Positions 36,305 through 52,930 are shown, counted from the stretch's first letter. The stretch: DNA of 64,000 bases from Acidimicrobiales bacterium (GCA_047971245.1 JBKDZN010000057.1:4716-68715), one strand, 5' to 3'. Numbers and translations: made by a program. The notes: generated by a model from the sequence alone, not told the origin.

Positions 36305-36513
36305 GGCCGCCCGTCGTCGGGACGAGTCGGTCGCCGGGGTTCAGGGTTGGGGACGGATGATCACGGGGTGTGACGAGGATCGGTGCAGAATCCTGAACGC
36401 GTCGCCCTCGCGTGCTGGTCCCTCTCAGCTCAGATAGGACGGGCCATAGGCCCGCCAGGGATCACTCGAACGGAGTGTGGAGGCGTTGCGTTCGAGGAAG
36501 CCTTGTTGCCTTG

Positions 36514-36921
36514 CTATCCCTGATCTGCCCTTGTCACGATGCCGTCGTCGTCAACGAGAATGACCAGGCGGGCAGGGTCCGACTTGCCGTCTACCCCATC
36601 ATTGGGGCCAGCGACCGAGACGTCAGTGAACCCTTGGGCCTCAGCCCACGCGACAGCATCGGCCGCCGGCCTGCCTTCAAGTCCGCTGAGGTCCAGCGGA
36701 GGATCGTAGAAGGCAGTCGGGGGGGTTGGAACATCGTCAGGTAAGGGCCGGGTCACCTCGGTCGCGGTGTCTTCGGGGCCGGATTGTGCTGTATTGACTT
36801 CAGCTGACGAGTCGTTCTGATTATTGTCGCTCCCACATGCCCCAGCGGATAGCAGCGCCACGAGGGCTACAGAGCGGATCAGCATCGCGCGGGTGATCAT
36901 CCCGAGTCGCTCCCTTGACAT
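36514..36921 (-). CDS. Small lipoprotein with an I78-like peptidase-inhibitor C-terminal domain
   Basis: Lipobox LLSAGAC. The C-terminus LEGRPAADAVAWAEAQGFTDVSVAGPNDGVDGKSDPARLVILVDDDGIVTRADQG fits my recollection of the I78 pattern (G.PA...A....G...VRV..PG...T.D....RLN..VD..G.V..V..G). Lower GC than the surroundings. Confidence 0.5.
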   Translation of the reverse strand: MSRERLGMITRAMLIRSVALVALLSAGACGSDNNQNDSSAEVNTAQSGPEDTATEVTRPLPDDVPTPPTAFYDPPLDLSGLEGRPAADAVAWAEAQGFTDVSVAGPNDGVDGKSDPARLVILVDDDGIVTRADQG

Positions 36922-36930
36922 GGTCGGTCG

Positions 36931-37899
36931 TTAGCTGAACCCGACGGGGGCCGTCAGATTGAATGCGGCTGGCAGATACCCAACGTGGCTGTATTCGATG
37001 TTGGTCCGGCATGCCTGTCCGTTGACAGTGGGGAGCGTTCCGCCTCGCTGGCCCTTATACACGCCTGAGTACCAGCAGGCTCTCCAGATCGTGCCCCCAC
37101 TGTCGCCAGGACATCCGTTGGCTGTCGCCTCACGAATCCCGTAGAACCAGCTTCCGGAGCGTGAGAATTGCAAGTCTCGATTGATGAGAGTGCCGCACTC
37201 GATCACGTTCTGGTTCCATGCAGGATCGGGAGCCCGTTGAGACGTCGTGTACCCGGAATGGCAGACCCAGTCCCCTTCCATGTCTCCGCCACTCGTGTCT
37301 GTCGCCCATGTCGGTGTCCATTGCCACCAGCCGAGGTTGTGCCAGATGTAGTTGTGTGCATCTGAGTTGGTGGCGGACCGTGGGGAGTCAGATTGGTAGG
37401 TCGAGTCCAGCGGCCATACCGCTACATCAGTTTCGGCGCCGTACCGGATTCTCGCTTGGCCGCTAGCGATTGTCGTCCATGGCTGCCTGAGGTCATTGTC
37501 CGAGGTGACAACCGTCCACCAGATCCCACCCCAGGTGTTCGGCGTGGAACTCCAGTCGGCCTGCGGTACGCAGTGCCCAGCAGTGACCGCATATCGGACC
37601 TGGACCGTCCCAAACGGCGTCCACACGTTCGCATACCAAGGAGCTGCGGACGTACAGTCGCCACCACCCGCTCGATATCTTAGCCCTCCTAACTGCACGG
37701 TCTGAAGGTCTTCTCGGCCGATTCCGTCCTCACCGTAGTCATCCTCGGTCGCTGATCTGATGACGACGTGCTGCAAGTTCGGAACATCGCTGAGCAGCTC
37801 TCGAACTTCGGGTCGGCCTCGTGGTCCGGTAGACAACAGTTCCGGCGAACCGATCCCATATCGTGCGCCTCGACCGATCCAGGGCGAGCAGGAGCGCAC
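36931..37899 (-). CDS. S1-family (streptogrisin / alpha-lytic type) serine protease without a recognisable signal peptide or pro-region
   Basis: Catalytic triad motifs AVTAGHC, TDVAVWPL and CPGDSGGTIW, plus CHSGYTTS...ECGTL. The start is unresolved: ATG 37899 overlaps the upstream gene by 161 nt, and the alternatives are TTG 37776 and GTG 37698. GC is noticeably lower. Confidence 0.75.
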   Translation of the reverse strand: MRSCSPWIGRGARYGIGSPELLSTGPRGRPEVRELLSDVPNLQHVVIRSATEDDYGEDGIGREDLQTVQLGGLRYRAGGGDCTSAAPWYANVWTPFGTVQVRYAVTAGHCVPQADWSSTPNTWGGIWWTVVTSDNDLRQPWTTIASGQARIRYGAETDVAVWPLDSTYQSDSPRSATNSDAHNYIWHNLGWWQWTPTWATDTSGGDMEGDWVCHSGYTTSQRAPDPAWNQNVIECGTLINRDLQFSRSGSWFYGIREATANGCPGDSGGTIWRACWYSGVYKGQRGGTLPTVNGQACRTNIEYSHVGYLPAAFNLTAPVGFS

Positions 37900-39034
37900 T
37901 GAGACCGAGGATCAGGAGGATGCCGAACTGGGCCATGGATTCGACGAATACCGCCCGGTCCGAATCGTCGAACAGGCCGAGGGTGATGCCGTCGTACGCG
38001 GCCATCATCAGGGCGATGAAACCGAGGCGGCGGGCGATCCTGGGCAGTCGTTCCAACCGGGCCGCCTCGAGCCCGACCTGCAAACCCAGTAACCGCTTGC
38101 CGATCGTCGCCGACCAGCCCACGAGGCAGACCGCCTCGTACAACAGCCCCATGCCGTAGACGCTGTAGGTCCGGCCCAAGATCTGCGGTGCCTCGACCCC
38201 CGGGCCTGGCCCGATCGAGTGCGAGTCGTCGATCGGGCCCATGTCGCCGGTGGCGACCAAGCCCAAGGCGGCGAACGCGGCCACACCGAGCAGCACGACC
38301 ATGATGTCGATCACCGGTGGCGCGCCGGGCCTGCGAGCCAGGATGGTCCGCTCGGGTGCGGTGGCCGTCGCGTGCTCCGTGCGCGTTGGCCGGGCCCCCG
38401 GGCGATCGGACATGCCGGAGGCCACGAACCGGAAGAACTCCTCGACCGTGATCAGCAGGTCGCCGTCGTAGTCGGCGGCCGGTGATCTGAGGGCGTCCGC
38501 GGCCAGGCTGATCAGGCCGACGTCGGCACCGGAGGGATTCCTTGTCGCGCTGATGACGGTGTGGCCGGCCATCGGGTCGGACACGACCGGAAGGGTTGTG
38601 CGACCGACCTGCCCGGCGGCGGCCGGCTCCCGAATCTGGAGGGCGACGTCCAGCAGCAGGAGACAGTTGCTGCTGCGGCATTGCCGGAGGAGTTTGTCGA
38701 CGGTACTCAGGTGGATCGCGGTGGACTCCAGCCGCGCCGGATCGGTCTGCGTCGTCTCCAGGTACGGCTCTCGGTGGCCGTCGAAGACCACGCCCCCGGC
38801 GATGACCAGGAGTAGGACGTCGCTCCGCTGCCGGTTCAGGAGCAGGTGACCCAGCTGGGCCGAGACGGCGCGGGCCTCGTCGAGCGGTTTCCACGCCACC
38901 TCGAAGCCCCCGATGTCATCCTCGCCGAGCAACCCAGCGAGCTGCTCCGGCGAGCCGTCCCGCTGGGCCCAGCCGCCGGTCAGGAGCAGGCAGTCACGGC
39001 TGCCCGGATGGGCCACCCGATTCGCTTGACCCAT
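37739..39034 (-). CDS. Caspase-like (C14 fold) domain with substituted catalytic dyad, fused to a C-terminal RDD membrane domain
   Basis: ATG 39034 behind GGAGGAG. DVLLLVIAGGVVFDG sits where C14 peptidases carry SGHG, and NCLLLLDVALQ where they carry D(A/C)C. After a TM segment, the RDD-type signatures are ATIGKRLLGLQV and RTIWDRFAGTVV. Confidence 0.6.
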   Translation of the reverse strand: MGQANRVAHPGSRDCLLLTGGWAQRDGSPEQLAGLLGEDDIGGFEVAWKPLDEARAVSAQLGHLLLNRQRSDVLLLVIAGGVVFDGHREPYLETTQTDPARLESTAIHLSTVDKLLRQCRSSNCLLLLDVALQIREPAAAGQVGRTTLPVVSDPMAGHTVISATRNPSGADVGLISLAADALRSPAADYDGDLLITVEEFFRFVASGMSDRPGARPTRTEHATATAPERTILARRPGAPPVIDIMVVLLGVAAFAALGLVATGDMGPIDDSHSIGPGPGVEAPQILGRTYSVYGMGLLYEAVCLVGWSATIGKRLLGLQVGLEAARLERLPRIARRLGFIALMMAAYDGITLGLFDDSDRAVFVESMAQFGILLILGLSALLLALDRSRRTIWDRFAGTVVYRTTRPTRSSRAAQRCSELAARRHQISDRG

Positions 39035-39284
39035 CCCGACTCCTCCGCTCCACCCCGGTCGTTCGCCGGATGTCGACACCGTCGCGCCTGGCTCGCAACG
39101 AACCGGCAACATGAGCACCGGATGGGTTCCGTCGATGCCTGTCTGGTCGGACCGCGGGCGCCTGAGGCCCGGATGGGTGATCGAGCCCGCCCCACGACCA
39201 CCCCGGACCTTGGGCCGGGTACGGCCGCTCCGGGGCGCCGACACCCCGGTACGCCGCGGTTCCGTGGGCGGTGGTCGTCATAGT

Positions 39285-40037
39285 ATGGTCGCGAGTCACC
39301 GCCGCGGGCCGCCTGCTCGCTCCCGGAAGGACACGGAGGAATGGGTGGCGGAGTATGAGCATCACGTCGACCCGATCGGGGCCAGACCTCAGCTGAAGGA
39401 TCTCGCGTTCGAACGGTTGCGGGAGTTCATCGTCACCGGCCGGCTCGCCCCGGGCGAGACCATCCGCGAAGCGGCCTGGTCGGCTCATTTGGGGGTGAGC
39501 AAGACACCCATCCGGGAGGCGTTCGTCCGCTTGGAGCAGGAGGGCTTCGTACGGCTCGAGCCCTACCGCGGTGCCATCGTGAGCGGGTATGACGCCAACG
39601 ACATCGATGAGATCTTCGAGGTCCGCGAGATCCTTGAGGGAGCCATGGCCCGCCGGGTGGCCCAGACCAAACCCGCTGGGATCATCGACCGGCTCCAAGC
39701 CAATCTGAGCTGTGGCGAGGCCGCGTTGTCCGCCGGCGACCATGAGGAGGCCGGCGTGGCCATGCACCGCTTCGACACCATCCTTTTCAGTGATATCGGC
39801 AACGCCCGCCTCGAAGCCGTGATCGACCAGATCCGCAGCCATGTCCAACGCATCGGGTGTCTTGCCGCGCCCGAGAAGATCGATCGGATCGAAGACGCTC
39901 TGCTTCACCAGCGGGGAATCATCGAGGCCATCGCCAACGGTCGGCCGGCCGCGGCGGAACGGTTGATGCGGCAACACGTTCGCGCCGTGAAGTCGAATGC
40001 CGTGACCGGTATGCGGGCCTCGGGAACCCTGGACTGA
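39285..40037 (+). CDS. GntR-family transcriptional regulator (FadR/FCD subfamily)
   Basis: wHTH LAFERLREFIVTGRLAPGETIREAAWSAHLGVSKTPIREAFVRLEQEGFV followed by an all-helical FCD-like domain. Confidence 0.85.
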   Translation: MVASHRRGPPARSRKDTEEWVAEYEHHVDPIGARPQLKDLAFERLREFIVTGRLAPGETIREAAWSAHLGVSKTPIREAFVRLEQEGFVRLEPYRGAIVSGYDANDIDEIFEVREILEGAMARRVAQTKPAGIIDRLQANLSCGEAALSAGDHEEAGVAMHRFDTILFSDIGNARLEAVIDQIRSHVQRIGCLAAPEKIDRIEDALLHQRGIIEAIANGRPAAAERLMRQHVRAVKSNAVTGMRASGTLD

Positions 40038-40175
40038 GCCGCAGGCCGTCGTCCAGTCCTGTCCCCGGCTCCGGGCCCCGGTCGCGGTGAGCATCAGGAA
40101 CTCCTGACCGGCTGCTAACGGCCGTGAAACCCGCCCGACATCTTCCCCGGCCATCCTCGGCCGGGTGGTCATACA

Positions 40176-40185
40176 TGAGATCTCA
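40176..40185. promoter_or_regulatory. AT-rich palindromic operator candidate upstream of the ABC permease gene
   Basis: TGAGATCTCA is a perfect 10-bp palindrome, 24 nt before the ATG at 40209. The same core recurs at 44336-44345. Confidence 0.4.
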
Positions 40186-40208
40186 GATTCGATCCTGGAT
40201 GGGCGGCC

Positions 40209-41219
40209 ATGGATCTGATCCGCCTGGTCGGTGTGCGGGTGCTGCTGGTGGTGCCGATCATGGTCGGGGTCGCCACCCTCACCTTCTTCATCACCCGGGT
40301 GTTGGCCGGCGATCCGACTGGTCTGTACGTGCCGGTCAACGCCACCGACGAGTTCCGGGACCAGGTCCGGGCCGATCTCGGCCTGGACCAGCCTCTGGCG
40401 GTCCAGTACCGGGACTTCGTCTCGGGATTCACCCGGGGTGATCTGGGGACTTCCGCCACCACCCGTCGGCCGGTCCTCGACGACCTCCTCGACCGGTTAC
40501 CGGCCACCGCCGAGCTCGCCCTCGCGTCCCTGGTCATCGCCGTGGTGATCGGGATCCCGGTCGGGGTGATCGCCGCGGTGAAGCAGGATTCGGCCGTCGA
40601 CTTCGCCCTCCGGGGTGTGACGTTGGTCGGCATGGCCCTGCCATCGTTCTGGCTCGGCTTGGTCCTGCTGCTCGTCTTCTTCGTGAACCTCGGCTGGTTG
40701 CCCGGCCCGGTCGGCCGCCTCCCCATCGGCGCCGCCCCGCCTCCCCAGGTCACCGGGCTGTTCACCGTCGACGCCCTCCTGGCCGGGCAGTTCGGCACCT
40801 GGTGGCAGGCAACCCGCCATCTGATCCTGCCGGCGGTCACGCTCGGTCTCGTCGGTCTGGCTCCGATCGCCCGGGTGGCACGCAACGAGATGGTCGATGC
40901 CCTGGCCTCGCCCTACATCCGCACCGCTCACGCCACCGGGATCCGTCCCTGGCGCATCTACCTGGTCTACGCCCTGCGGAACGCCCTGCTCCCGGTGGTC
41001 ACCATGATCGGCGGCGTGGTCGGCTTCCTGTTCTCCGGCGCCATCCTGGTGGAGAGCATCTTCGGCTGGCCCGGTCTCGGCCAGTACGCCCTGGCGGCGA
41101 TCTCCCGTTCCGACTTCGACGCACTCCAGGGGTTCGTCCTGTGGAGCGCGGGCCTGTTCGTGCTCACCTACCTGGTCGTCGACGTCCTGTACCTCGTCAT
41201 CGATCCCCGGACCCGGTGA
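40209..41219 (+). CDS. ABC transporter permease (peptide/nickel DppB/OppB type)
   Basis: N-terminus RVLLVVPIMVGVATLTFFITRVLAGDP and an EAA-loop region ARVARNEMVDALASPYIRTAHATG. Confidence 0.9.
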   Translation: MDLIRLVGVRVLLVVPIMVGVATLTFFITRVLAGDPTGLYVPVNATDEFRDQVRADLGLDQPLAVQYRDFVSGFTRGDLGTSATTRRPVLDDLLDRLPATAELALASLVIAVVIGIPVGVIAAVKQDSAVDFALRGVTLVGMALPSFWLGLVLLLVFFVNLGWLPGPVGRLPIGAAPPPQVTGLFTVDALLAGQFGTWWQATRHLILPAVTLGLVGLAPIARVARNEMVDALASPYIRTAHATGIRPWRIYLVYALRNALLPVVTMIGGVVGFLFSGAILVESIFGWPGLGQYALAAISRSDFDALQGFVLWSAGLFVLTYLVVDVLYLVIDPRTR

Positions 41220-41268
41220 CGGTCCACCTCCCGACGCGCGGTCGGGACCTTCCCGTGAAGGAGTCGTC

Positions 41269-42150
41269 ATGAGCGTCGCCGCCGACGCCCCCACCCGACC
41301 CGCCGTCAACACCCCCGCCCGGTCGAGCCGGTCGGCGGCCTGGCGGTCGCCGAGCATGACCGTGGGCCTCGCCGTGGTCGCCGTCTACGTTCTCGTGGCC
41401 GTGGCCAGCCTGATCTGGACCCCGTTCGACCCCGATCGGCTGGGGGCGGGGACCCCGTTCTCCCCGCCGGACGGTACCCACTGGTTCGGTACCGACCGGT
41501 TGGGTTCCGACGTGTTCTCCCGGACCATGGTGGCCACCCGGATCGATCTCGTCATCACCCTTGCCTCAGTGGCGATCGCCCTGGTGGTCGGCACCGTGCT
41601 CGGTGTGGTTGCCGGTACCCGAGGGGGCTGGATCGACGGTGTCGTCATGCGGGCCACCGACGTTCTGCAGTCGTTCCCCACCCTGCTGCTGGCCATGTTG
41701 ACCGTCGTGGCTCTCGGGGCCGGCGTCGCCAACGTGATCATCGTCCTGGCGTTCGTCGGCCTTCCCTACTACGTGCGCTTGGCCCGGGCCGAGATCCTGG
41801 CCAAGCGGTCCAGCCAGTTCGCCGACGCCGCCCGACTGGCCGGCAACTCCTCCTGGGCCGTGTCGTTCCGCCATTTGCTGCCCAACTCGCTCGGCCCCCT
41901 GCTGGCGTACACGTCGGTCAACACCTCCTGGGTCGTGCTGGTGACCGCCAGTCTCGGGTACCTCGGGGTGGGCATCGAACCGGGCCGCTCGGAGTGGGGG
42001 GCCATGATCAGCCGGGGCCAGGGGCAGATCACCACCGGCGAATGGTGGATATCCCTCTTCCCGGGCCTGGCCGTACTGGGGCTCTCGGCCGCCTTCTATC
42101 TCCTCGGGGACGGCCTGCGGGACCTCAACGATCCGAGAGGACGTCGCTGA
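41269..42150 (+). CDS. ABC transporter permease (DppC/OppC type)
   Basis: HWFGTDRLGSDVFSR, YYVRLARAEILAKRSSQFADAARLAG and a C-terminal GDGLRDLNDPR. Confidence 0.9.
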   Translation: MSVAADAPTRPAVNTPARSSRSAAWRSPSMTVGLAVVAVYVLVAVASLIWTPFDPDRLGAGTPFSPPDGTHWFGTDRLGSDVFSRTMVATRIDLVITLASVAIALVVGTVLGVVAGTRGGWIDGVVMRATDVLQSFPTLLLAMLTVVALGAGVANVIIVLAFVGLPYYVRLARAEILAKRSSQFADAARLAGNSSWAVSFRHLLPNSLGPLLAYTSVNTSWVVLVTASLGYLGVGIEPGRSEWGAMISRGQGQITTGEWWISLFPGLAVLGLSAAFYLLGDGLRDLNDPRGRR

Positions 42151-43214
42151 TGTCGACCGGTCGTTCAACTGCGGTCCCGTCGGGTTCCGTCGGGCCGTCC
42201 ACCGCCACCGATCCGGAGGCGCCTTCCACGGAGACCGACGACGTGATCGCTCGGTTCGACGACGTGCAGGGCCATTTCGCGACCCGCTCGGGTGATCTTC
42301 ACGCCTTGCGGGGTGTGACCTTTCCCATCAGGAGAGGGGCGATCACCGGTCTGGTCGGTGAGACGGGCTCCGGGAAGTCGGTGGTCGCCCGACTGCTACT
42401 CGGCATGAGCGATGACAACTTCCAGCTCGATGGCGGACGGGTCCTGGTGGACGGGACCGACGTCTTGCAGCTGCCGAACCGGGAGCGGCGGGCCCTGCGG
42501 GGTCGGACGGTGTCGATGGTCTTCCAGGACGCGAAGTCGGCCCTCAACCCCGTCTTCTCGGTGGGGGAGCAGCTGTCCCGACCGCTGCGTGAGCGGAACC
42601 GGGCCGGCCGGCGTGACGCATGGGCGGCCGCGGTCGATCTCCTGGAACGGGTGCGGATACCCGAGCCGGAACGGCGGGCTCACCAGTACGCCCATCAGTT
42701 CTCGGGTGGCATGGCGCAGCGGGCCATGATCGCCCTGGGGCTGGTGCAGACGCCGGACCTGGTCGTGCTCGACGAGCCGACCACCGGGTTGGACGTCACG
42801 ATCCAGGCCGAGGTGCTCGACCTGATCCGGGAGCTGGGGGCCACGAACCAGACCACGGCCCTGCTGATCACCCATGACCTCGGGGTGGTGGCCGAGACCT
42901 GTGACCATGTGGCGGTCATGTACGCCGGCCGGTGCGTCGAGTACGGATCGGTCCAGGAGATCTTCGACGATCCCGCCCACCCCTACACCCGCGAGCTGCT
43001 GCGGGCGTGCCGGAGCGTCGAACTGGACGAGGGCGAGCTGATCAGCATCCCCGGGGTCGTTCCGGATCTTCGGCGACCGCCGGTCGGTTGCGCCTTCGCC
43101 GAGCGTTGCCCCGACCGGTTGGAGGTCTGCGACCGCGAACCGCCGACGATCGGGATCGGCGGGGACAGGACCGTCATCTGCCATCGTTCTGCCGACCGGG
43201 GAGGCCCGCGTTGA
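42150..43214 (+). CDS. ABC transporter ATP-binding protein (DppD/OppD type)
   Basis: [37 protein letters not shown] and a C-terminal oligopeptide-type extension with Cys residues. The start overlaps the permease stop. Confidence 0.9.
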
Positions 43215-43228
43215 CCGAGGCCACCGCC

Positions 43229-44338
43229 ATGGATGACCGGACCGCCCCGGATTCCGAGACCGAGACCGGACCATTGCTGTCGGTACGGGGGCTCCGCAAG
43301 GTGTTCGACGTCGGGTCCCTGTTCCGGAGGCGGTCGTTGGTGGCTGTCGACGGGGTCGATCTCGACATCGAGCCGGGGGCCTCGCTCGGCCTGGTCGGTG
43401 AGTCCGGTTCGGGTAAGTCGACGCTGGTTCGCTGTGTCATGAACCTGGAGGGGCCGACGGAGGGGACGATCCGGTTCGACGGTCGTGACGTGGGCCGCCT
43501 CAGCGAGCGTGAACGGCTGGAGCTCTACCGCGATATCCAGATGGTGTTCCAGGATCCCCTGGAGTCGTTGAACCCCCGCCGTACGGTCGAGCAGACCATC
43601 GCCGAACCGTTGCGCCGCCACTCCGGGGTCGACCATCGTGCCGCCCGCGACCGGGTGCGGGAGCTTCTCGACCTCGTCGGTCTGGCCGACGCCCACCTCG
43701 ATCGGTACCCCCACGAACTGTCGGGCGGCCAGCGGCAGCGGGTCGGTATCGCCCGGGCGCTGGCCCCCGAACCCCGGTTGCTCGTGCTCGACGAACCGAC
43801 GGCATCGCTCGACGTGTCGGTCCGGGGTCAGATCCTCAATCTGCTGCTCGACCTGCAGCAGCGACTGGGTCTCGCCTATCTCTTCGTCAGCCACGATCTG
43901 GCCACGGTCCGTCGGGTCACCGACCGGGTCCTGGTCCTCTACCTCGGCCGGGTGCTGGAGTCCGGGCCGTCTCCCGCCGTGTTACGCGAACCGCTCCACC
44001 CCTATACCCAGGCCTTGCTCTCGGCGGCTCCGGTGCCCGAGTACGGACCTCGGCGTGAGCGGGTCCGGCTGGAGGGGGAGATCCCGTCGCCGCTGTCCCT
44101 CCCACCCGGCTGCCGCCTCGTGGGTCGTTGCCCGCTCGAGGTGCCGGAATGCGCCACCTCGCATCCCGACCTCGGCGGCGCCGACGGCGCTGGTGCGGTC
44201 GATGGCGGTCATCAGGTGGCCTGCCATGTGATCCGGCGACCGTCGTTGGCCCAGCTCCAATCGCCGGTGCGCCCGGTCCCGGTGGACTCCGAGCCCGATC
44301 CCGACGAGGCGTCGAGCGGACCAGGTTCGACTAAATGA
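43229..44338 (+). CDS. ABC transporter ATP-binding protein (DppF/OppF type)
   Basis: [28 protein letters not shown] and [12 protein letters not shown]. The alternative TTG start at 43211 would overlap the previous stop. Confidence 0.9.
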
Positions 44339-44346
44339 GATCTCAT
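44335..44346. promoter_or_regulatory. Second copy of the palindromic operator candidate, upstream of the binding-protein gene
   Basis: ATGAGATCTCAT is a perfect 12-bp palindrome straddling the stop of the ATPase gene. It is followed by ATCTGA-tatg-TCAGAT (44346-44361). Confidence 0.4.
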
Positions 44347-44467
44347 ATCTGATATGTCAGATTTGGACCAGAAGGTGGCAACCGGATCCCCACGGAGCGG
44401 AAACCGGGACGACACCGGCACCGCCGACACTCAGGGACGACGAGCACACCCACGCGAAGGAGACCTT

Positions 44468-46138
44468 GTGCCCAAGATCTGGAGATTGGTGGCCCTCTTC
44501 GCCACACTGGCCCTCGTCGGGGCGGCGTGCGGCGGCGGCACCGATTCGACCGCGGACGCCGGTGACACCACCGGTGGGACCGGCAACGCGGTTCCCGCCG
44601 ACGACGGGACCCTCGTGTTCGCGGCGACCGGCGACATCAACAGCATGGACCCGTCGATCACCGCGGTCGAATGGAATCGGGTCCTCGATGTGAACGTCTA
44701 CGAGACGCTGGTCAACTACGACCTCCAGCCCACCGACGACGGATCTCTGGTGGGTATCGGCCTCGCCGTGGCCCCGGGTCTCGCCTCCGAATGGGAGATC
44801 GAGGGTGACAGCGTCACCTTCACCCTCCGCGACGGAGTGACCTTCTATCCGAGCGGCAACCCGATGACGGCCGAGGACGTCCGCTACAGCATCATCCGGA
44901 CGGTCCGCCTCCCCGGTTCGACCGGCACGTTCAACGCCAACCTGGCCGGCATCTTCGAGCCCGAACAGCAGGTCGAGGTGGTCGACGACCAGACGGTCCG
45001 TATCAACTTCACCGACGCCGAAGGGAATCCCCGGCGCACGGCCATGTCGCTGCCGTCGTTGCGGTTCCCCCAGTTCAGCATTCTGGACTCGGTCACCTTC
45101 GAGGAACACGCCACCGAGCACGACCCTTGGGCGGCGACGTGGGCCGAAGGCAACGTCGCCGGCACCGGCCACTACTACGTCGAGAACTACTCGCCAGGGT
45201 CCGAGATCGCCCTACGGGTCGTCCCCGACTACTGGGGTGAGGCCCCAGGGTACGAGCAGGTGATCATGCGGGTGGTCGGCGGGGCCGACATCACTTCGTT
45301 GATGCTCGGCGACGAGGTCGACATGGCCAGTTCCGGCCTCGGCAGCCGGGAGCTCGACACCTTGGAGGAGGCCGGTTTCCAGGTCATCAACCAGCCGATC
45401 CCCGACATCATCAAGGCAGAGCTGGTGACGACCTCGCAACCGCTCGACGACCAGACCGTCCGGCAGGCCGTTGCCGAGGCCATCCCCTACGACCAGGTCA
45501 TCGAGATCGCCCTCGGCGGGCGGGGCGAGCGGGCCTACTCGATTGTCAACCCCGCCGCCCCCGCCTACCAGCCGGCCTGGGAGATCTACGGCGACCCGGC
45601 CCGGGCATCCGCCCTGATCGAGCAGGCCGGAGCGGCCGGAGCGACCGTGCCGATCTACTTCAACAGCGACATCTCCTCGATGGAGGACATCGCCCTGCTC
45701 ATCAGCGATTCGCTCCAGGGGATCGGCCTGGACGTCGAGGTCAACGGCCTACCCACCGTGCAGTTCACCGACGAGCGGACCAAGCTGACCCGGGGGGAGC
45801 CGTCCCAGATGTCCGGCCTGGTGCTCACGTCGGGGGTGATCTGGCTCGATGACGCCGACCCGAACGTCGACCTGTGGTTGAAGAGCGATGGCTTCTCCAA
45901 CTCCACCGGCTGGGCCGATCCCGAGGTCGATCAGCTCCACGCCGAGTTCCGTTTCAGCTCCGACCCGGAGGCCCGGGCTGCGGCCTACGGCACCGTCCAG
46001 GCGCTCGGGGCGGAAGGGGCCGCCTACGCACCGATCGCGGTGGCCGGCGTGACGGTGGCCCTCCGGCCCGGCATCCAGGGGGCTTCGTTCACCTCCGACC
46101 CCCACCCCCGCTTCTGGACCATGAGCCCGTCCGAATGA
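44468..46138 (+). CDS. ABC transporter substrate-binding lipoprotein, family 5 (peptide/nickel type)
   Basis: GTG 44468 behind GAAGGAG. Lipobox LALVGAACGGG. A mature domain of about 530 aa with LVNYD, LRDGVTFY.SGNPMTAEDV and VPDYWGE motifs. Confidence 0.85.
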   Translation: MPKIWRLVALFATLALVGAACGGGTDSTADAGDTTGGTGNAVPADDGTLVFAATGDINSMDPSITAVEWNRVLDVNVYETLVNYDLQPTDDGSLVGIGLAVAPGLASEWEIEGDSVTFTLRDGVTFYPSGNPMTAEDVRYSIIRTVRLPGSTGTFNANLAGIFEPEQQVEVVDDQTVRINFTDAEGNPRRTAMSLPSLRFPQFSILDSVTFEEHATEHDPWAATWAEGNVAGTGHYYVENYSPGSEIALRVVPDYWGEAPGYEQVIMRVVGGADITSLMLGDEVDMASSGLGSRELDTLEEAGFQVINQPIPDIIKAELVTTSQPLDDQTVRQAVAEAIPYDQVIEIALGGRGERAYSIVNPAAPAYQPAWEIYGDPARASALIEQAGAAGATVPIYFNSDISSMEDIALLISDSLQGIGLDVEVNGLPTVQFTDERTKLTRGEPSQMSGLVLTSGVIWLDDADPNVDLWLKSDGFSNSTGWADPEVDQLHAEFRFSSDPEARAAAYGTVQALGAEGAAYAPIAVAGVTVALRPGIQGASFTSDPHPRFWTMSPSE

Positions 46139-46187
46139 GCGACCGAACCACTCGCCCCCGGCCCCGCCACCCTGAGGAGATGACGAC

Positions 46188-47762
46188 ATGACCCGCACCC
46201 TGGTGATCGGTGATCCGGTCATCGTGCTCGGCCCCGGCCCCCAGCCCGTTGTTGCCGACGGAGCCCTCGTCGTCGACGACCGTGTCGTCGTCGAGGTCGG
46301 TCCTCGGGAGCAGCTCGAGGCCAACGGTCCCTACGACGCCGTGATCGGTTCGGCCGACCACCTGGTCATGCCGGGGTTCGTCAACGGCCACTTCCACGGC
46401 GGTAGCTACGCCCACGCCGGCATGGCCCAGTACATCTTCGAACGGGCGAACGTGTCGGTTCACGGCAACCGGGGCGCCGTCGATGAGGAGTTCCTGCACG
46501 CCGCCTATGTCCTGAGCTATCTCGATTGCCTCAAGGGTGGGCAGACCGCGGTGGTCGACTTCAGCTACGGCCGGCCCGAGATGGACCAGTTCGGCAACGA
46601 ACCGATCCTGCGAGCCTACGCCGATGTCGGTATCCGGGCCGCCCTCGGGTTCGTCACCCGGGATCGCAATAAATACGTGCACGCCCCTGACGACCACTTC
46701 CTGTCGATGCTGCCCCCAGGTCTGCGGGCCGAGGTGGCCGCATCCCCCATGGGGTACGCCTGGCCGACCGGTGACGTGGTGGCCGCCTACCGAAAGCTGA
46801 CTCCCCGATGGGACGGCTACGACGGACGGATCCGATGCCTCCTGGCCCCCGACTGGACGCCGGCCAACAGTGACGAGTGCTACCTGCTCATGCGGCAACT
46901 GGCCGACGAGTACGACACCGGGATCATGACGCATGTCCTGGAGACCAAGTCGGAGATGATCTTCAACCTGAAGCATCACGGCAAGACCGCGATGCGGCGG
47001 TTGGCCGATCTGGGTGTGCTCGGACCGGATGTCTCGGTCGACCACTTCGTGTGGGCGACCGACGAGGACATCGCCATCCTGGCCGACACCGGAGCGGTCG
47101 CGGTCAACAACCCAGGATCGAACCTTCGCCTGTCGGCTGGGGTGTGCCGCACCCGCGACATCCTGGATCGGGGCGGCATGTTCTGCTTCGGGACCGACTC
47201 CATCGGCTTCTCCCCGGACGAGGACTTCTTCGAGGAGCTGCGGCTGGCTCTCTACCTGCAACGCCTGCCGGGCCGGCTCGACGTCGGTCGCCTCGACACC
47301 CTGCACGTACTCGACACCGCGGCCAAAGCCGGGGCGCGGGCGCTGCGGATGGAGGACAGGGTCGGGTCGCTGCGGCCCGGTAAGGAGGCCGACCTGCTCG
47401 TCCTCCGCAAGGACACCTTCATGCGGCCCACGGCCAAGTTCAGTGCCATGCCGATCCTGGATGTGCTCGTCGACCGGGCGGAGGCCGACAACATCGAGAC
47501 CGTCATGGTGGCGGGCACGGTGGTGGTCCAGGACGGTCGTTCGACCGTCGTCGACGAGGACGCGCTGTGGGCCACGCTGGAGGCCGGTATCGACGACGGC
47601 GCCTACCGCGCCCCCGACGAGACCTGGGCCCGCTGGGGTGAGCTCGGCGGCGAGGTCGAGCCGTACGTCTTCGACTTCTTCCAGCCGTGGGCCGACCTTC
47701 CGGTGCGGCAGGCCTACACGTACAACGCCGCCGAGGCCCCGGACGTCAGCCGTCTCGGCTGA
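46188..47762 (+). CDS. Metal-dependent amidohydrolase (ATZ/TRZ-like deaminase/ring-hydrolase family)
   Basis: LVMPGFVNGHFHG (HxH), MTHVLE, VDHFVW and CFGTDS, the metal ligand pattern of the amidohydrolase superfamily. Confidence 0.8.
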   Translation: MTRTLVIGDPVIVLGPGPQPVVADGALVVDDRVVVEVGPREQLEANGPYDAVIGSADHLVMPGFVNGHFHGGSYAHAGMAQYIFERANVSVHGNRGAVDEEFLHAAYVLSYLDCLKGGQTAVVDFSYGRPEMDQFGNEPILRAYADVGIRAALGFVTRDRNKYVHAPDDHFLSMLPPGLRAEVAASPMGYAWPTGDVVAAYRKLTPRWDGYDGRIRCLLAPDWTPANSDECYLLMRQLADEYDTGIMTHVLETKSEMIFNLKHHGKTAMRRLADLGVLGPDVSVDHFVWATDEDIAILADTGAVAVNNPGSNLRLSAGVCRTRDILDRGGMFCFGTDSIGFSPDEDFFEELRLALYLQRLPGRLDVGRLDTLHVLDTAAKAGARALRMEDRVGSLRPGKEADLLVLRKDTFMRPTAKFSAMPILDVLVDRAEADNIETVMVAGTVVVQDGRSTVVDEDALWATLEAGIDDGAYRAPDETWARWGELGGEVEPYVFDFFQPWADLPVRQAYTYNAAEAPDVSRLG

Positions 47763-47837
47763 TACCCGACCGACGCGTACGGCCCCCTGTCGGGGTCCCA
47801 CCCGCCCCGTCGGGGACGACCAATCAACGGAGGAACC

Positions 47838-48926
47838 ATGACCAAAGAGATCGAGCTCGGGGTCTTCATCCCGGTCGGCAACGGTGGCTGGATCATCTCC
47901 ACCACGAGCCCCCAGCTGCCGGCCAGCTACGAGTACAACCGTGAGGTCACCGTCCTGGCCGAGAACCTGGGGTTCGATTTCGCCCTGTCGATGGCCAAAT
48001 GGCGAGGATTCGGTGGACCCTCCCACCACTGGGATGTGACCCTCGAGTCGTTCACCACCATGACCGGGTTGGCCGAGGCGACGTCCCGGATCAAGCTGTG
48101 GTGCACCATCCACACCATGGTGTGGCACCCGGCCGTGGTGGCCAAGATGATTGCCACCTTCGACCAGGTGTCGCAGGGGAGGGCGGGTGTGAACCTGGTC
48201 GCCGGTTCGAACCCGGTCGACCAGGGGCAGATGGGTTTGTGGCGTGATCTCGACCACGAGGGCCGCTACGGCCTCGCCCAGGAGTGGGTCACGGTGGCCA
48301 AGCGGCTGTGGACCGAGGACCGGGTGACCCACCACGGCCGCTTCTTCGACCTCGAGGACTGTATGTCCAACCCCAAGCCGGCCGCCCTCCCGCCGATCCT
48401 GTGCGCCGCCACTTCCGACCGCGGATTCCGCTTCACCATCGAACACTGCGACGTCTGTTTCATGGGGTCGACCGGACCGGACGAGATGATCTCGGTGGCC
48501 CGGCGGGCCCGGGTCGTGTCGGCGGAACTCGGCAAGCCGACCCGGACCTTCGGGCTGTTCTCGATCATTCCGGGCGAGACCGACGCCGATGCCCGCCGGC
48601 GGGTCGAGCTCTACAACGAGGGGGTGGATGTCACCGCCCTGGCCAACCGGTCGCGCGAGTACGGGCAGGACGTACCCCAGAACACGACGGCCAAACGGAT
48701 GATCGACGGGGGCAAGTCCGGCCTGGCCGTGCCCCGCTCGGCGCTGGTCGGCTCGCCGGCCACCATTGCGGAGGGTCTGGCCCGGGTGGTGCACGAGGGC
48801 GACCTCGACGGGGTGGTGGTCATCGTCCCTGATTTCATCGACGACCTGCGGGTGGTGGGGCAGGAAGTGACCCGCGAACTGGGCGCGCGCGACGTCGCCA
48901 CCGCAGCCGCGCTGCAGCAGGCGTGA
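47838..48926 (+). CDS. LLM-class flavin-dependent monooxygenase, RutA (pyrimidine monooxygenase)-like
   Basis: LGVFIPVGNGGWIISTTSPQ...FDFALSMAKWRGFGGPSHHWDVTLESFT closely parallels my recollection of E. coli RutA (GVFVPIGNNGWLIS...FDFALSMIKLRGFGG...LESFT). Confidence 0.75.
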   Translation: MTKEIELGVFIPVGNGGWIISTTSPQLPASYEYNREVTVLAENLGFDFALSMAKWRGFGGPSHHWDVTLESFTTMTGLAEATSRIKLWCTIHTMVWHPAVVAKMIATFDQVSQGRAGVNLVAGSNPVDQGQMGLWRDLDHEGRYGLAQEWVTVAKRLWTEDRVTHHGRFFDLEDCMSNPKPAALPPILCAATSDRGFRFTIEHCDVCFMGSTGPDEMISVARRARVVSAELGKPTRTFGLFSIIPGETDADARRRVELYNEGVDVTALANRSREYGQDVPQNTTAKRMIDGGKSGLAVPRSALVGSPATIAEGLARVVHEGDLDGVVVIVPDFIDDLRVVGQEVTRELGARDVATAAALQQA

Positions 48927-49336
48927 CGGTGATCGCCGTCAACCCGGCCGGAGTTCATGCCGTTCCCGCCTATTCCCACGCGCTCGTGGGCACCGGTACG
49001 CCGGTGTTCCTCACCGGCCAGATCGCCCTGGACGCCGAGGGCCGGCTCGTCGGCGTGGGCGACCCGGCGGCTCAGGCCGCTCAGGTGTGGCGCAACATCC
49101 GTTCGATCGTGACGGCCCTCGGGGCCGACCTGACCGACATCGTGAAGCTCACCACCTTCGCCGTCGACCGGGCCCACCTGCCGGCCATCGGCGCCGAACG
49201 GGCCCGGCACTTCGAACCGGGCCGGTTCCCGGCCAGCACCTTCCTGCTGGTCGCCGGATTGGCGCATCCGGACTATCTGGTCGAGATCGAGGTGATCGTC
49301 ATGCTGGACGATTCGGCGCCGGCAGCACGGTCATGA
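48923..49336 (+). CDS. RidA/YjgF-family protein (RutC-like position)
   Basis: AYSHALVGTGTPVFLTGQIALD, IVKLTTF and DYLVEIEVIV. The GTG start overlaps the RutA-like stop. Confidence 0.85.
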   Translation: MTVIAVNPAGVHAVPAYSHALVGTGTPVFLTGQIALDAEGRLVGVGDPAAQAAQVWRNIRSIVTALGADLTDIVKLTTFAVDRAHLPAIGAERARHFEPGRFPASTFLLVAGLAHPDYLVEIEVIVMLDDSAPAARS

Positions 49337-49375
49337 GGAGGGCACGGTCATGAGACAGGAGAGAGAGGAACGGTC

Positions 49376-49765
49376 ATGAATCACACCACGATCACCGTCG
49401 ACGGGGCCTTCCGGAGCGACGCGTTCGCCCACGGGGTGGTCGCCCGCGGGGCGCTCCTGGCCGTGGCCGGGCAGCTCGCCCTGAACGAGGACGGTTCGAC
49501 CTACGCCCCCGGTGACCTCGACGCTCAGATCGCCAAGGTGTGGCGGCAGGTGGAGGCGGTGGTCCGCACCGCCGGTGGCGACATGGGCGACGTCGTGAAG
49601 ATCACCAGCTTCGTGACCGACCCGGACCATATCGGTCCGGTGGTGGCGTCCCGGGCCGAGGTGTTCCCCGGCGGCCAGGCCCCGGCCAGCACGCTCGTGG
49701 TGGTGGCCGCCCTGGCCCGACCCGAGTTCCTGGTCGAGATCGAGGCGTTGGCGGTGATCCCGTGA
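49376..49765 (+). CDS. RidA/YjgF-family protein, second copy
   Basis: FAHGVVARGALLAVAGQLALN, VVKITSFV and EFLVEIEALAV. Confidence 0.85.
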   Translation: MNHTTITVDGAFRSDAFAHGVVARGALLAVAGQLALNEDGSTYAPGDLDAQIAKVWRQVEAVVRTAGGDMGDVVKITSFVTDPDHIGPVVASRAEVFPGGQAPASTLVVVAALARPEFLVEIEALAVIP

Positions 49766-50724
49766 TGGTGGGGCTGACCACTGGATCGGCCGGCGAGAGT
49801 CCGCTGGTCCCCGAGGCCCGACGGTTCCTGGCCGACCTCGACCGGGCGGGGTGGAAGCCCCGCCATCTCGTCGGTGTCGGCGCGGCGCGCGACCAGCTGG
49901 CCTTGGCCCGGCCCCGCGTGGGCGCCCCCATTGATTGGGTCGACGACCTGATCGTGCCCGGCCGACCGGCGGTTCCGGCCCGGCTGTACCGGGTGGCCGA
50001 CGAGGTCGGCGTGGTGGTGTTCCTGCACGGCGGCGGTTGGGTGCTCGGCGACCTCGACCTGTCGGACGCGATGTGCCGCGATCTGGCCCTCGGGTGTGGG
50101 GCCGCGGTGCTGTCGGTCGACTACCGCCTGGCGCCCGAGCATCCGTTTCCTGCCGCCCTCGACGACGTCATGACCGTACTGCGATGGTTGGAGGCCTCGC
50201 CGGGACTCGGCGGCCCGCGGGTGCTCGCTGGGGTCAGCGCCGGCGGCAACCTGGCGGCGGCCGCTGCTCTGATGGCCCGGGACGGGCCGGGAACGGAGCT
50301 CGCCGGTCAGCTGCTCGTGTGCCCGGTGCTCGACCACGACCTCGACCGGCCGTCGTACCTGCGGTACGCCGAGGGTCACTATTTGTGGCGGGAGGACATG
50401 GCTTGGTTCTGGGACCGTTACACCACGCCGGAGGAGCGGCTGGATCCGCTGGCCTCTCCGCTGCGGGCTGCCGATCACGGCGGTCTTCCCCCCACCGCGG
50501 TCGTCACTGCCGAGTGCGATCCGTTGCGGGACGAGGGCCGGGCGTACGCCGACCGGCTGGTCGCGGCCGGGGTGCCCACGTCGTACCGGTGCTATCCGGG
50601 CGAGCTCCACGGCTTCTTCGGGAACCCGGCGATGCCGTCGGGGCGGGCGGCGCTCGACCAGGCCGCCGGCGAGGTCCGAGCCTGGCTCCGACCAGCGCCG
50701 GCCGGCTCCGGAGGTCCACGATGA
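49765..50724 (+). CDS. Alpha/beta hydrolase of the hormone-sensitive-lipase/esterase type
   Basis: Oxyanion motif VVFLHGGGWVLG, nucleophile GVSAGGNLAA, DPLRDEG and GELHGF. ATG overlaps the RidA stop (ATGA). Confidence 0.8.
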   Translation: MVGLTTGSAGESPLVPEARRFLADLDRAGWKPRHLVGVGAARDQLALARPRVGAPIDWVDDLIVPGRPAVPARLYRVADEVGVVVFLHGGGWVLGDLDLSDAMCRDLALGCGAAVLSVDYRLAPEHPFPAALDDVMTVLRWLEASPGLGGPRVLAGVSAGGNLAAAAALMARDGPGTELAGQLLVCPVLDHDLDRPSYLRYAEGHYLWREDMAWFWDRYTTPEERLDPLASPLRAADHGGLPPTAVVTAECDPLRDEGRAYADRLVAAGVPTSYRCYPGELHGFFGNPAMPSGRAALDQAAGEVRAWLRPAPAGSGGPR

Positions 50725-51254
50725 CGGGGGGAACGGTTCACGTGGTGATCGGGAACCCCAAGCCCGGGGGGCGGACCACCCGGGTGGCGATGGCCGTGGC
50801 CGAGATCCTTGCCGACATGGCGGGGGGTCTGGAACCGGAGACCGTCGAGTTGGGTGAGCACACGGCGACGATGTTCGACTGGGGCGACGCCGTACTCGGG
50901 CAGCTGGTGTCCGACATCGTCGAGGGTGATGCGCTCGTCGTGGCTTCCCCCACCTACAAGGCCAGCTTCACCGGCTTGCTCAAGGCCTTCCTCGATCGGT
51001 TCCCCGCGGGCTCCCTCCGGGGGGTGGTCACGGTGCCGGTGATGCTCGGCGGTTCGGAGCGCCACAGCCTCGCCGTCGACACCCAGCTCCGACCGGTTCT
51101 GGTCGAACTCGGGGCCACGATGCCCACGGAGGGGGTGTACCTGGTCGACGATCGGGTCGACGACCTCGAGGCCGAGCTCGACCCGTGGCGCGCCGCCCAT
51201 GAGGCGGTGTTGGCCCCGTTGCTGGGTGGAGACGGGTCGACGGGTCCCGCATGA
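50721..51254 (+). CDS. NAD(P)H-dependent FMN reductase family protein
   Basis: HVVIGNPKPGGRTTR and ALVVASPTYKASFTGLLKAFLD. ATG overlaps the esterase stop (ATGA). Confidence 0.75.
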   Translation: MTGGTVHVVIGNPKPGGRTTRVAMAVAEILADMAGGLEPETVELGEHTATMFDWGDAVLGQLVSDIVEGDALVVASPTYKASFTGLLKAFLDRFPAGSLRGVVTVPVMLGGSERHSLAVDTQLRPVLVELGATMPTEGVYLVDDRVDDLEAELDPWRAAHEAVLAPLLGGDGSTGPA

Positions 51255-51340
51255 TCCCGGACCCGACCGTGCCCAGCCGATACGGGCGACCTCCACCCAT
51301 ACGGGGGACGCCGGTTGCCGACTCCGGTCAGCACCGGCAT

Positions 51341-52036: not shown

Positions 52037-52049
52037 CGGCGACCAGCCC

Positions 52050-52765: not shown

Positions 52766-52839
52766 CGCCGGATCCCTTTGGCGGCGGTCCTGGCCCGCTC
52801 CAACTGGTCGAGATCGTGTGCGGGATCAGATGGTGTGCT

Positions 52840-52876: not shown

Positions 52877-52930
52877 GGCAACTGGAACTGGTGCGCCCCC
52901 ACGAGCCGAAGGCGGTTGATCCCGGACCCG

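Follow-up and report, generated by a model that had tools for sequence, protein, structure and literature searches.

The closest described counterparts of the locus studied here are the alpha-lytic protease and streptogrisin-type enzymes of Peptidase family S1 (MEROPS S1; 4PRO, 2PRO), the serine protease inhibitors of families I78 (AFUEI, an Aspergillus elastase inhibitor, PDB 3W0D) and I13 (potato inhibitor I, with CI-2 and eglin c), and the bacterial caspase homologues (Peptidase_C14, EACC1-associated). The pro region of alpha-lytic protease, supplied in cis or in trans, is needed for folding and secretion of the enzyme; when the protease domain is produced by itself, it is misfolded and inactive (PMC2289522). 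Secreted proteases are also found together with self-protection inhibitors as adjacent genes on transposons and genomic islands.

We analysed a locus in a 64-kb stretch of DNA from an Acidimicrobiales bacterium; the whole of this stretch is hereafter called the window. An earlier note had described three genes of this locus, designated here g1 (pseudo-caspase-RDD membrane protein), g2 (S1 protease) and g3 (inhibitor lipoprotein), as a self-contained module for regulated proteolysis. Given the comparisons presented below, we consider it very probable that the locus instead consists of a decayed secreted protease/inhibitor cassette that was joined by rearrangement to g1, an unrelated native gene. 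The features of the locus are listed in Table 1.

Table 1. Coordinates of the features of the protease/inhibitor locus, counted from the first nucleotide of the window
Feature	Coordinates	Strand	Description
Variable region, 25.4 kb	36305..61672	.	Absent from nearest relative; cassette remnant and g1 at left edge
Horizontally acquired cassette remnant	36365..37809	-	Inhibitor lipoprotein gene and 3' 879 bp of protease gene
Cassette outer end, reads GGGGTGTGACGAGG...	36365..36402	+	Candidate Tn3-family terminal repeat
g3	36514..36921	-	Lipoprotein-type signal peptide, Ser/Thr/Pro-rich linker, predicted C-terminal I78/I13-fold inhibitor domain (aa ~75-135)
g2, family-homologous part	36931..37809	-	Last ~25 residues of pro region and complete S1 catalytic domain
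g1, replaced C-terminal tail	37739..37809	-	22 residues and stop, from cassette protease pro-region DNA in another frame
g2, apparent 5' extension	37810..37899	-	Chance out-of-frame reading of native g1 RDD coding sequence
g1, native part	37810..39034	-	Pseudo-caspase domain (aa ~25-240), transmembrane segment, RDD domain (aa ~295-408)
tRNA-Lys(UUU)	61673..61748	-	ARAGORN; 3' end is right border of variable region

Results

Composition of the locus

The three same-strand ORFs described earlier, g1 (37739-39034), g2 (36931-37899) and g3 (36514-36921), are all present on the minus strand; in its longest version the g1 ORF starts at 39244. GC content is 0.60-0.61 from 36.8 to 38.0 kb, against about 0.70 around it, and the segment 36365-37809 is the lowest-GC stretch of 1,445 bp in the window (0.611 versus a mean of 0.699, z = -2.95). 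The low-GC islet of the earlier note is therefore real as a dip, but it is confined to g2 and g3 and does not extend to g1: GC3 is 0.67-0.68 in g2 and g3, versus 0.88 in the native part of g1 and 0.86-0.93 in host genes. The unusual codons said to mark the islet are likewise found, as AT-ending rare codons (TTA, AGA, TAT and others) occur at 9-10 per 100 in g2 and g3, compared with 0.3-3.2 in the neighbouring genes and 3.2 in g1. Thus, composition marks g1 as native and both g2 and g3 as foreign. Scanning 36.2-39.4 kb for promoter and terminator consensus sequences identified no site, which is a weak test in a high-GC actinobacterium.

A divergent S1 protease of the alpha-lytic type

The catalytic His (TAGHC), Asp (TDVAV) and Ser (GDSGG) of g2 are conserved across the family alignment (P0001-P0007) and occur in the order typical of Peptidase S1 (PA clan, chymotrypsin fold), confirming the intact triad that had been read from the sequence. 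Direct searches with g2 against Pfam, NCBIfam and PDB sequences gave no match (Pfam and PDB at E <= 1), and the S1 assignment is for this reason drawn from the family profile. The profile matches trypsins and factor Xa chains (1fxy, E = 2.2e-6) with the His and Ser motifs aligned, and its N-terminal matches include the Streptomyces proteases 1hpg and 2sfa. PF00089 matches two of the eight family members, with a best E of 7.9e-6.

The protease shares with alpha-lytic protease and the streptogrisins the His-Asp-Ser order, the TAGHC and GDSGG motifs and conserved cysteines. It differs from them in the strong divergence of its family, reflected in the lack of Pfam, NCBIfam and PDB matches to the window protein, and in a longer mature domain (~255 aa) with Trp-rich insertions (WWQW). 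Relatives are rare: we found only seven among 5.8 billion proteins, and a metagenome scan with the protease alignment returned no match.

The missing 5' end of the protease gene

All seven homologues (369-515 aa) are longer than g2 (322 aa), and the alignment of g2 to each of them begins only at EVRELLSD; upstream of this point the g2 ORF has no similarity to any homologue. In the complete homologues, a signal peptide precedes a pro region of ~200 aa, and signal-peptide-like N-termini were identified in P0001, P0003, P0004, P0006 and P0007. The N-terminal region of P0001 was modelled (AF2) at pLDDT 72-90, and each of its six best fold matches in the PDB is to the pro region of alpha-lytic protease (4pro, 2pro, 3pro; probability 0.96-1.0). 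The catalytic domain of the same model has low confidence (pLDDT 30-65), and only the pro region was used. The intact homologues are therefore like alpha-lytic protease in carrying a signal peptide and a pro region of matching predicted fold. Unlike such pre-pro enzymes, the copy in the window has no signal peptide and its pro region is down to about 25 residues.

Neither a signal peptide nor a pro region can be read from any in-frame start of g2, and no remnant of the pro region was found elsewhere in the 64-kb window. At the homologous locus of another metagenome (L001/L026) the DNA runs on upstream into the signal and pro regions; in the window it switches abruptly to the RDD coding sequence of g1 at 37809/37810. 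Judged by homology, g2 is a 5'-truncated remnant that represents the 3' two-thirds of an ordinary secreted S1 protease gene. The earlier note was correct that no start frame of g2 provides an export leader and that the ORF overlaps the tail of g1, and both features are explained by the truncation. What had appeared to be a leaderless protease is an enzyme cut at a homology breakpoint, whose complete homologues carry a signal peptide and an alpha-lytic-type pro region.

The homologous part of g2 (293 codons) is free of internal stops and frameshifts and keeps the full triad, so that either the truncation is recent or the remnant is still of some use. The pN/pS ratio between g2 and its counterpart in L001 is ~0.3, a value based on only 16 substitutions, too few to gauge selection on g2, that mostly reflect the history before truncation. 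The remnant may be translated, given the in-frame GTG and TTG codons at 37899, ~37839, ~37777 and ~37699. Some S1 proteases are able to fold without large pro regions. A truncated g2 that starts internally, folds unaided and acts as an intracellular moonlighting protease would be consistent with this, with the intact ORF and with the in-frame codons. We nonetheless regard it as very unlikely, as the pro region is kept in all complete members of the family, no promoter-like site was detected, no ribosome-binding site was seen before the candidate starts, and the alpha-lytic protease domain is inactive when made alone (PMC2289522). Furthermore, g2 retains the conserved S1 cysteines C82, C235, C263, C297 and the Cys of GHC, whose positions are those of disulfide cysteines. 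This suggests that proteases of the g2 type are extracytoplasmic enzymes and that they may require disulfides, which would not form in the cytoplasm. Most likely, the g2 remnant is a non-functional pseudogene.

A putative inhibitor lipoprotein with a predicted I78/I13 fold

The likelier start of g3 is the ATG at 36900. The C-terminal domain of its product was modelled at pLDDT 86-95 (AF2), and a Foldseek search with this model ranked AFUEI first (3w0d, 30% identity, probability 1.0) and CI-2 and eglin c next. Every one of the top 50 matches is an inhibitor of family I78 or I13, and their target-normalised TM-scores span 0.55-0.75. The model thus clearly predicts an AFUEI/CI-2/eglin alpha/beta wedge fold for the last ~60 residues, the fold that in families I78 and I13 presents an exposed reactive loop. 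At the sequence level, g3 itself does not match PF11720 or PF00280. One of the four members of its family matches each model below threshold (potato_inhibit, PF00280, E = 0.0047; I78, PF11720, E = 0.048), and the family profile reaches 3w0d at E = 0.13, also sub-threshold. The I78-like lipoprotein proposed earlier is accordingly upheld at the level of fold, without a direct I78 sequence match. Apart from these weak family matches, the resemblance to I78 and I13 inhibitors extends to the position of the gene beside a serine protease gene. Unlike those inhibitors, the g3 domain scores below the Pfam thresholds and is preceded in the polypeptide by a lipoprotein signal peptide and a long linker of low complexity.

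Genes similar to g3 adjoin the protease gene at every locus with enough DNA, in two gene orders: downstream in L001/L026 and upstream in L002-L005. Related inhibitor-like domains are also encoded next to P0006 and, in L010, next to a classical trypsin-like gene. A metagenome scan with the inhibitor alignment recovered no more than one short contig and a near-duplicate of L001. The adjacency in relatives and the predicted fold both point to g3 as a putative inhibitor of the protease, in agreement with its earlier designation as the cognate inhibitor.

A pseudo-caspase fused to an RDD domain

The C-terminal part of g1 passes the Pfam RDD model (PF06271), with 31.9 bits against a gathering score of 24.1; its relative P0012 scores 42.3 bits. 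The N-terminal domain reaches 33.8 bits (E = 2e-8) against the NCBIfam model caspase_w_EACC1 (NF047832), for which the cut-off is 140. Its homology to Peptidase_C14 is established through other proteins: a phmmer search with g1 identified hundreds of proteins at E = 4e-10 to 1e-5, and eight of the nine that were checked pass PF00656. The domain is homologous to the bacterial caspases over about 200 residues and includes a DxDGDxxIT motif. In the alignment, the catalytic columns of g1 read AGGV and LDVA where true caspases have S[GC]HG and LDCC; Gly stands in place of His and Val in place of Cys (Arg and Leu in P0012), and g1 therefore cannot be a cysteine protease. Unlike Peptidase_C14 enzymes, g1 thus lacks the catalytic His-Cys dyad and is fused to an RDD membrane domain. 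The dead caspase-like domain and its fusion to RDD are as the earlier note described them. Of the four assignments for which that note proposed profile searches, RDD passes directly and S1 is reached through the family profile; the caspase match is sub-threshold and I78 is not matched directly, but homology and fold, respectively, support these last two.

The architecture is rare, with only two representatives among 1.84 billion. An exhaustive HMMER search with g1 found one full-length relative, P0012, which is encoded on a contig of ERR4592245; a word-indexed protein search found g1 alone, and a scan of genome contigs gave no match. The P0012 gene is located directly downstream of a Peptidase_S8 gene, and both known pseudo-caspase-RDD members are thus encoded beside a serine protease gene, which for g1 is the S1 remnant. 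That such proteins are dedicated partners of secreted serine proteases, acting as membrane docks, decoys or sensors, is a speculation to which we assign a low probability. If true, the junction disrupted or is rewiring a real pairing, and the protease would be no chance neighbour.

Homology between g1 and P0012 reaches residue 409 of g1 and ends at the junction, and residues 406-429 of g1 match positions 2499-2570 of L001 (tblastn). The g1 and g2 frames are one nucleotide apart across their 161-bp overlap, and the protease domain comes immediately past the last RDD helix. A +1 ribosomal frameshift, or correction of a 1-nt assembly error, would accordingly fuse the RDD domain of g1 to the protease domain, and the last transmembrane helix would become both export signal and anchor of a membrane-tethered protease. 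We find such a chimeric gene highly improbable: the cassette frame is offset from the g1 frame at the breakpoint, P0012 has no comparable C-terminal extension, the pro region for folding would still be absent, and no slippery or stimulatory element was noticed on reading through the overlap. A single-frame fusion of g1 and g2 was rejected, as the frames differ at the breakpoint.

Cassette boundaries and mobile context

The cassette DNA is 95.6-95.8% identical to L001/L026 over 36365-37235 and 37609-37809, and the homology has sharp breakpoints at both ends, which on the g1 side is 37809/37810. At the outer end (36365), two genomic contexts with no relation to each other share the exact base at which it stops. 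Remnants of Tn3-family resolvase/transposase genes lie beside the cassette in L001/L026. The link of the outer end to a Tn3-family terminal repeat is based on one other genomic context and a GGGG-initial terminus; a second Tn3-type inverted-repeat arm was not found in L026, and a Tn3 origin remains a hint for that reason. Integrase and IS256-type transposase genes were identified at L002-L005 and L007, and no recombinase gene was found among the scanned ORFs near the cassette in the window. Since the L001/L026 copy was damaged independently, having lost 373 bp internally and acquired a frameshift in its g3 gene, decay of the cassette is recurrent. The cassette family is thus similar to secreted protease and self-protection inhibitor pairs borne on transposons or genomic islands, in that the two genes are adjacent and have Tn3-family, IS256-type or integrase flanks at several loci. 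Unlike such mobile pairs, the window keeps just a decayed fragment.

The cassette lies in a region that is variable among relatives. In the Acidimicrobiales MAG VLC_048 (L024), the tRNA-Lys gene is located 45 bp past the stop codon of a PhoU-like gene, an empty site where the window has 25.4 kb beside the tRNA-Lys 3' end. No direct repeat of the tRNA-Lys 3' end was found at the far border of this island, and no integrase was identified among the scanned island ORFs. We conclude that, in this Acidimicrobiales lineage, the gap between the PhoU-like and tRNA-Lys genes is a hot spot of recombination.

Such plasticity also bears on the assembly. The window is apparently a metagenome-assembled contig, its relatives are MAGs, and the assembly of a related MAG breaks at this hot spot, so the join at 37809/37810 could be an artefact and the real genome could carry a full-length protease gene or no cassette. 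We consider this improbable. Native-type DNA flanks the cassette on both sides, so a mis-assembly would need two chimeric joins. No repeat that might mislead an assembler was noticed at either breakpoint, and at 36365 the cassette has its natural outer end, which it shares with L001/L026.

Discussion

On the earlier reading of this locus, a leaderless cytoplasmic protease would be held in check by its inhibitor and by the dead caspase-RDD protein, in a system for stress, defence or suicide. The intact triad and ORF of g2 and the tight spacing of three genes on one strand are in keeping with that proposal, and the location of P0012 next to a Peptidase_S8 gene makes it conceivable that pseudo-caspase-RDD proteins are linked to serine proteases. 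We nevertheless judge the module to be extremely unlikely. The protease is truncated at a sharp homology breakpoint and belongs to a secreted family with an alpha-lytic-type pro region; g3 could not meet a cytoplasmic protease because a lipoprotein sits outside the cytoplasm; and composition sets a native g1 against a foreign g2 and g3. No caspase or RDD gene occurs at any of the other protease or inhibitor loci examined, so that the trio, whose co-localisation in relatives had been suggested as a test, was never seen together there. PADLOC-DB v2 models did not match g1, g2, g3 or P0001 at E <= 0.01, and the gene neighbourhood is metabolic, which speaks against a role in stress, defence or suicide. 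The family conforms instead to the ordinary secreted protease with a self-protection inhibitor that the earlier note had named as its own counter-case. We conclude that the three genes came to lie side by side by accident, through the junction, and that they form no functional module.

For the reading that we prefer, a decayed cassette joined to native g1, we propose the following history. A cassette of two genes, probably carried by a Tn3-family element, would have been transferred horizontally into the Acidimicrobiales genome. One gene would have specified a pre-pro S1 protease that is secreted and of the alpha-lytic type, and the other a lipoprotein inhibitor of I78/CI-2 fold that is anchored in the membrane. 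As long as the cassette was intact, the signal peptide would export the protease, and the ~200-aa pro region would fold it outside the cell before its release. The lipoprotein inhibitor, at the membrane's outer surface, may shield the envelope of the producer from its own enzyme. A deletion or illegitimate join then, as sequence comparison shows, deprived the protease gene of its promoter and start codon, of the signal peptide and of almost the whole pro region, and the remaining cassette DNA became fused to the 3' end of g1. The protease remnant is thereby left without a homologous start, an export signal or a folding catalyst, and the last 22 codons and the stop of g1 are now supplied out of frame by protease DNA. 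The g3 gene is intact but has lost its protease partner; it may still be expressed, and its product could act on other proteases. A speculative possibility, to which we give a low probability, is that the orphaned lipoprotein has been retained as a shield against the proteases of competitors.

The chief value of this analysis is a correction, as what seemed a leaderless protease in a possible suicide or defence system is only part of a gene. We suggest that g2 be annotated as a pseudogene and excluded from searches for new systems. The catalytically dead caspase fused to RDD represents a rare and uncharacterised architecture. The intact relatives of g2 form a very small and divergent alpha-lytic-type clade that is not covered by Pfam, and the combination of an I78/CI-2-fold lipoprotein with an alpha-lytic-type protease offers a bacterial protease/inhibitor pair, borne on mobile elements, that can be tested.

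Composition of the locus and the junction

The three minus-strand open reading frames (ORFs) of the earlier note were reproduced with identical coordinates: g1, encoding a pseudo-caspase-RDD membrane protein, g2, an S1 serine protease remnant, and g3, a lipoprotein of I78/CI-2 fold. GC content, ~70% across the window, falls to 0.60-0.61 at 36.8-38.0 kb, and positions 36365-37809 have a GC of 0.611, lower than any other interval of that length (1,445 bp) in the 64 kb (mean 0.699, z = -2.95). At third codon positions, GC is 0.68 in g2, 0.67 in g3 and 0.88 in the native part of g1, the last lying inside the genome-normal range of 0.86-0.93. Per 100 codons, g2 and g3 contain 9-10 AT-ending rare codons, against 3.2 in g1 and 0.3-3.2 in other neighbours. 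The low GC previously ascribed to three genes is real, but these values set g2 and g3 apart from g1, and the compositional islet therefore contains two genes.

Features of the g1-g3 locus and of the variable region that contains it (36305-61672 marks genes lying within that region)
Feature	Window position	Strand	Remarks
g1	37739-39034	minus	ORF
g2	36931-37899	minus	ORF
g3	36514-36921	minus	ORF
EF-hand-like motif ADYDGDLLITVEEF in g1	38200-38400		g1 residues ~185-200
GntR/FCD regulator	36305-61672
Dpp-type ABC transporter	36305-61672		solute-binding protein scanned; permease and ATPase from ORF reading
Amidohydrolase	36305-61672
Luciferase-like monooxygenase	36305-61672
RidA-like proteins	36305-61672
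FMN reductase	36305-61672
M20 peptidase	36305-61672
PLP-dependent enzyme	36305-61672
SPFH protein	36305-61672
Nudix/NrtR regulator	36305-61672
ABC exporter-like ORF	36305-61672		from ORF reading
MarR regulator	36305-61672
PIN-domain gene, VapC-like, with overlapping small upstream ORF	60787-61658		directly beside tRNA-Lys gene

In L001, a contig from a metagenome, and in L026, a longer near-duplicate of it, the DNA is 95.6-95.8% identical to window positions 36365-37235 and 37609-37809; the identity is confined to these two stretches and the rest of the window is unmatched. At 36365/36364 the shared cassette ends at one and the same base in the window and in L001, and each sequence continues into unrelated flanks. 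Base-by-base comparison revealed a second sharp breakpoint at 37809/37810, where L001 runs upstream into a pro region and signal peptide and the window continues as the 3' end of the RDD coding sequence of g1. As a consequence, the g2 ORF opens with 30 residues that are g1 sequence read by chance in another frame, and the final 22 residues of g1 are protease DNA read out of frame (tblastn). Homology between g1 and its only full-length relative, P0012, ends at g1 residue 409, which is the junction. We consider it very improbable that g1 and g2 represent a frameshifted fusion gene, and give similarly little credence to the junction being an assembly chimera.

No pro-region fragment was detected elsewhere in the 64-kb window. 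This absence and the junction account for the two oddities noted earlier, a protease that has no leader and an ORF that overlaps g1: both are present, but they reflect 5' truncation at the breakpoint, and g2 is a 5'-truncated remnant. The main point in favour of some residual g2 function is the intact 293-codon reading frame, which differs from L001 by 16 substitutions, too few to weigh this point; an active leaderless protease module is highly unlikely. The L001/L026 copy (95.7% identical) was damaged independently: an internal deletion of 373 bp, at a GGG microhomology (L001 2708/2709), takes out the protease His and Asp region, and the lipoprotein gene has a frameshift (L001 3209-3240).

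Protease family and pro region

The g2 protein had no match in Pfam, NCBIfam or PDB sequences, and seven homologues (P0001-P0007) were found among 5.8 billion proteins. With the family profile, trypsin and factor Xa are hit at E = 2e-6, their chains aligning with the TAGHC and GDSGG motifs; Streptomyces S1 proteases align as well, and two family members match PF00089, supporting the S1 assignment and intact triad first proposed for g2. All homologues are longer than g2 (369-515 aa), five of them (P0001, P0003, P0004, P0006 and P0007) with signal-peptide-like N-termini. They share a conserved region of ~200 aa that is missing from g2, which can be aligned to them only from EVRELLSD on. For this N-terminal region of P0001 (AlphaFold pLDDT 72-90), the six best PDB fold matches without exception belong to the pro region of alpha-lytic protease (4pro, 2pro, 3pro; probability 0.96-1.0). 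P0001 is predicted to share this pro-region fold; g2 lacks that region. Alpha-lytic protease depends on its pro region, supplied in cis or in trans, to fold and be secreted; its protease domain is misfolded and inactive when made alone (PMC2289522). That the g2 remnant folds without its pro region seems a slim prospect.

Candidate inhibitor

The g3 product begins with a lipoprotein-type signal peptide that includes a Cys; a linker of low complexity then leads to a conserved C-terminal domain of ~60 residues. Sequence matches to inhibitor families were sub-threshold: of four family members, one matched potato_inhibit (E = 0.0047) and one I78 (E = 0.048), and AFUEI (3w0d) was matched at E = 0.13. 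The C-terminal domain is modelled at pLDDT 86-95, and its top 50 Foldseek matches in PDB are all serine-protease inhibitors of I78 or I13 fold, led by the I78 prototype AFUEI (30% identity), then CI-2 and eglin c. A g3 homologue immediately follows the protease gene in L001/L026 and immediately precedes it in L002-L005. The predicted fold and conserved adjacency support the suggestion that g3 is a candidate cognate inhibitor of g2-family protease.

On contig L010, the g3 homologue P0010 (2-208, minus strand) divergently adjoins a stretch (442-915) encoding the N-terminus of a classical trypsin-like protease, signal peptide included. This adjacency suggests that g3-type inhibitor-like lipoproteins may be partnered with S1 proteases of at least two lineages. 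Convergent with the P0006 gene is a gene (L006 3220-3939, minus strand) for a 239-aa anti-sigma-like membrane protein, which adjoins an ECF sigma fragment and, judged by eye, appears to have two tandem g3-type inhibitor-like domains.

The pseudo-caspase-RDD protein

The RDD domain of g1 scores above the Pfam threshold, and its N-terminal domain matches NCBIfam's EACC1-type caspase model below threshold. Searched exhaustively with HMMER against 1.84 billion representatives, this domain matches hundreds of proteins (E = 4e-10 to 1e-5), and eight of nine checked pass PF00656. The alignment bears out the pseudo-caspase reading: in g1 the catalytic His is replaced by Gly and the Cys by Val, and in P0012 they are replaced by Arg and Leu, respectively. 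The architecture is rare, with two representatives. Where active bacterial caspase homologues read DxDGDGxIT, the dead g1 domain keeps the shared EF-hand-like motif as ADYDGDLLITVEEF. The proposed trio does not recur: no caspase or RDD gene was found near protease or inhibitor in any other locus, and g1 has native composition. On the P0012 contig (Logan ERR4592245, genes 3762-4964 and 5166-6386), a Peptidase_S8 gene lies just upstream of P0012 in a same-strand cluster that includes an OmpA-domain gene, which we note as a lead, not as evidence, for a serine-protease link.

Mobile elements and the tRNA-Lys site

Tn3-family resolvase/transposase remnants lie beside the cassette in L001/L026, and integrase and IS256-type genes adjoin it at other loci. 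Its conserved outer end starts GGGGTGTGACG, which we take to resemble a Tn3-family terminus; no second repeat arm matching this end was found. The intact P0001 protease cassette sits in mobile islands. In L004 (1065-7067), a patatin/Prok-JAB/ThiF (E1-like)/397-aa gene cluster resembling a type II CBASS operon lies beside a tyrosine integrase, and L002, L003 and L005 carry DUF4238 and HEPN-RES genes and IS256-type transposases (L002 15212-17450).

Flanking genes place the window in Acidimicrobiales. In the closest relative, MAG VLC_048 (contig L024), 45 bp separate the PhoU-like stop codon from tRNA-Lys(UUU); in the window this interval is 25.4 kb (36305-61672), with no counterpart in VLC_048. 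The scanned ORFs of this region are mainly metabolic and regulatory, with no integrase among them, and no tRNA-derived direct or att-type repeat was found. PADLOC gave no match for g1, g2, g3 or P0001. The locus is not a defence island. A second VLC_048 contig, L012, carries a different insertion starting exactly at the tRNA-Lys 3' end (L012 10664-11127 versus L024 210-264), so the site is an apparent hot spot of repeated integration. The L012 element encodes a resolvase-type HTH peptide and matches window 60833-60901 over 69 bp at 83% identity. A small ORF upstream of the PIN-domain gene, overlapping it, is a possible VapB-type antitoxin gene. At 63428-63932, ORFs on both strands encode tandem peptide repeats (MEQDRAVEQDRAV... 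and ARSCSTARSCST...), indicating a 15-bp tandem DNA repeat.

Origin of the locus

The best explanation, which we regard as quite probable, is acquisition of a mobile protease/inhibitor cassette followed by its truncation. The protease gene would then be a pseudogene, the inhibitor lipoprotein gene an intact orphan, and g1 a native gene whose tail has been replaced. The locus is a case of ordinary gene decay in a poorly covered member of known families.
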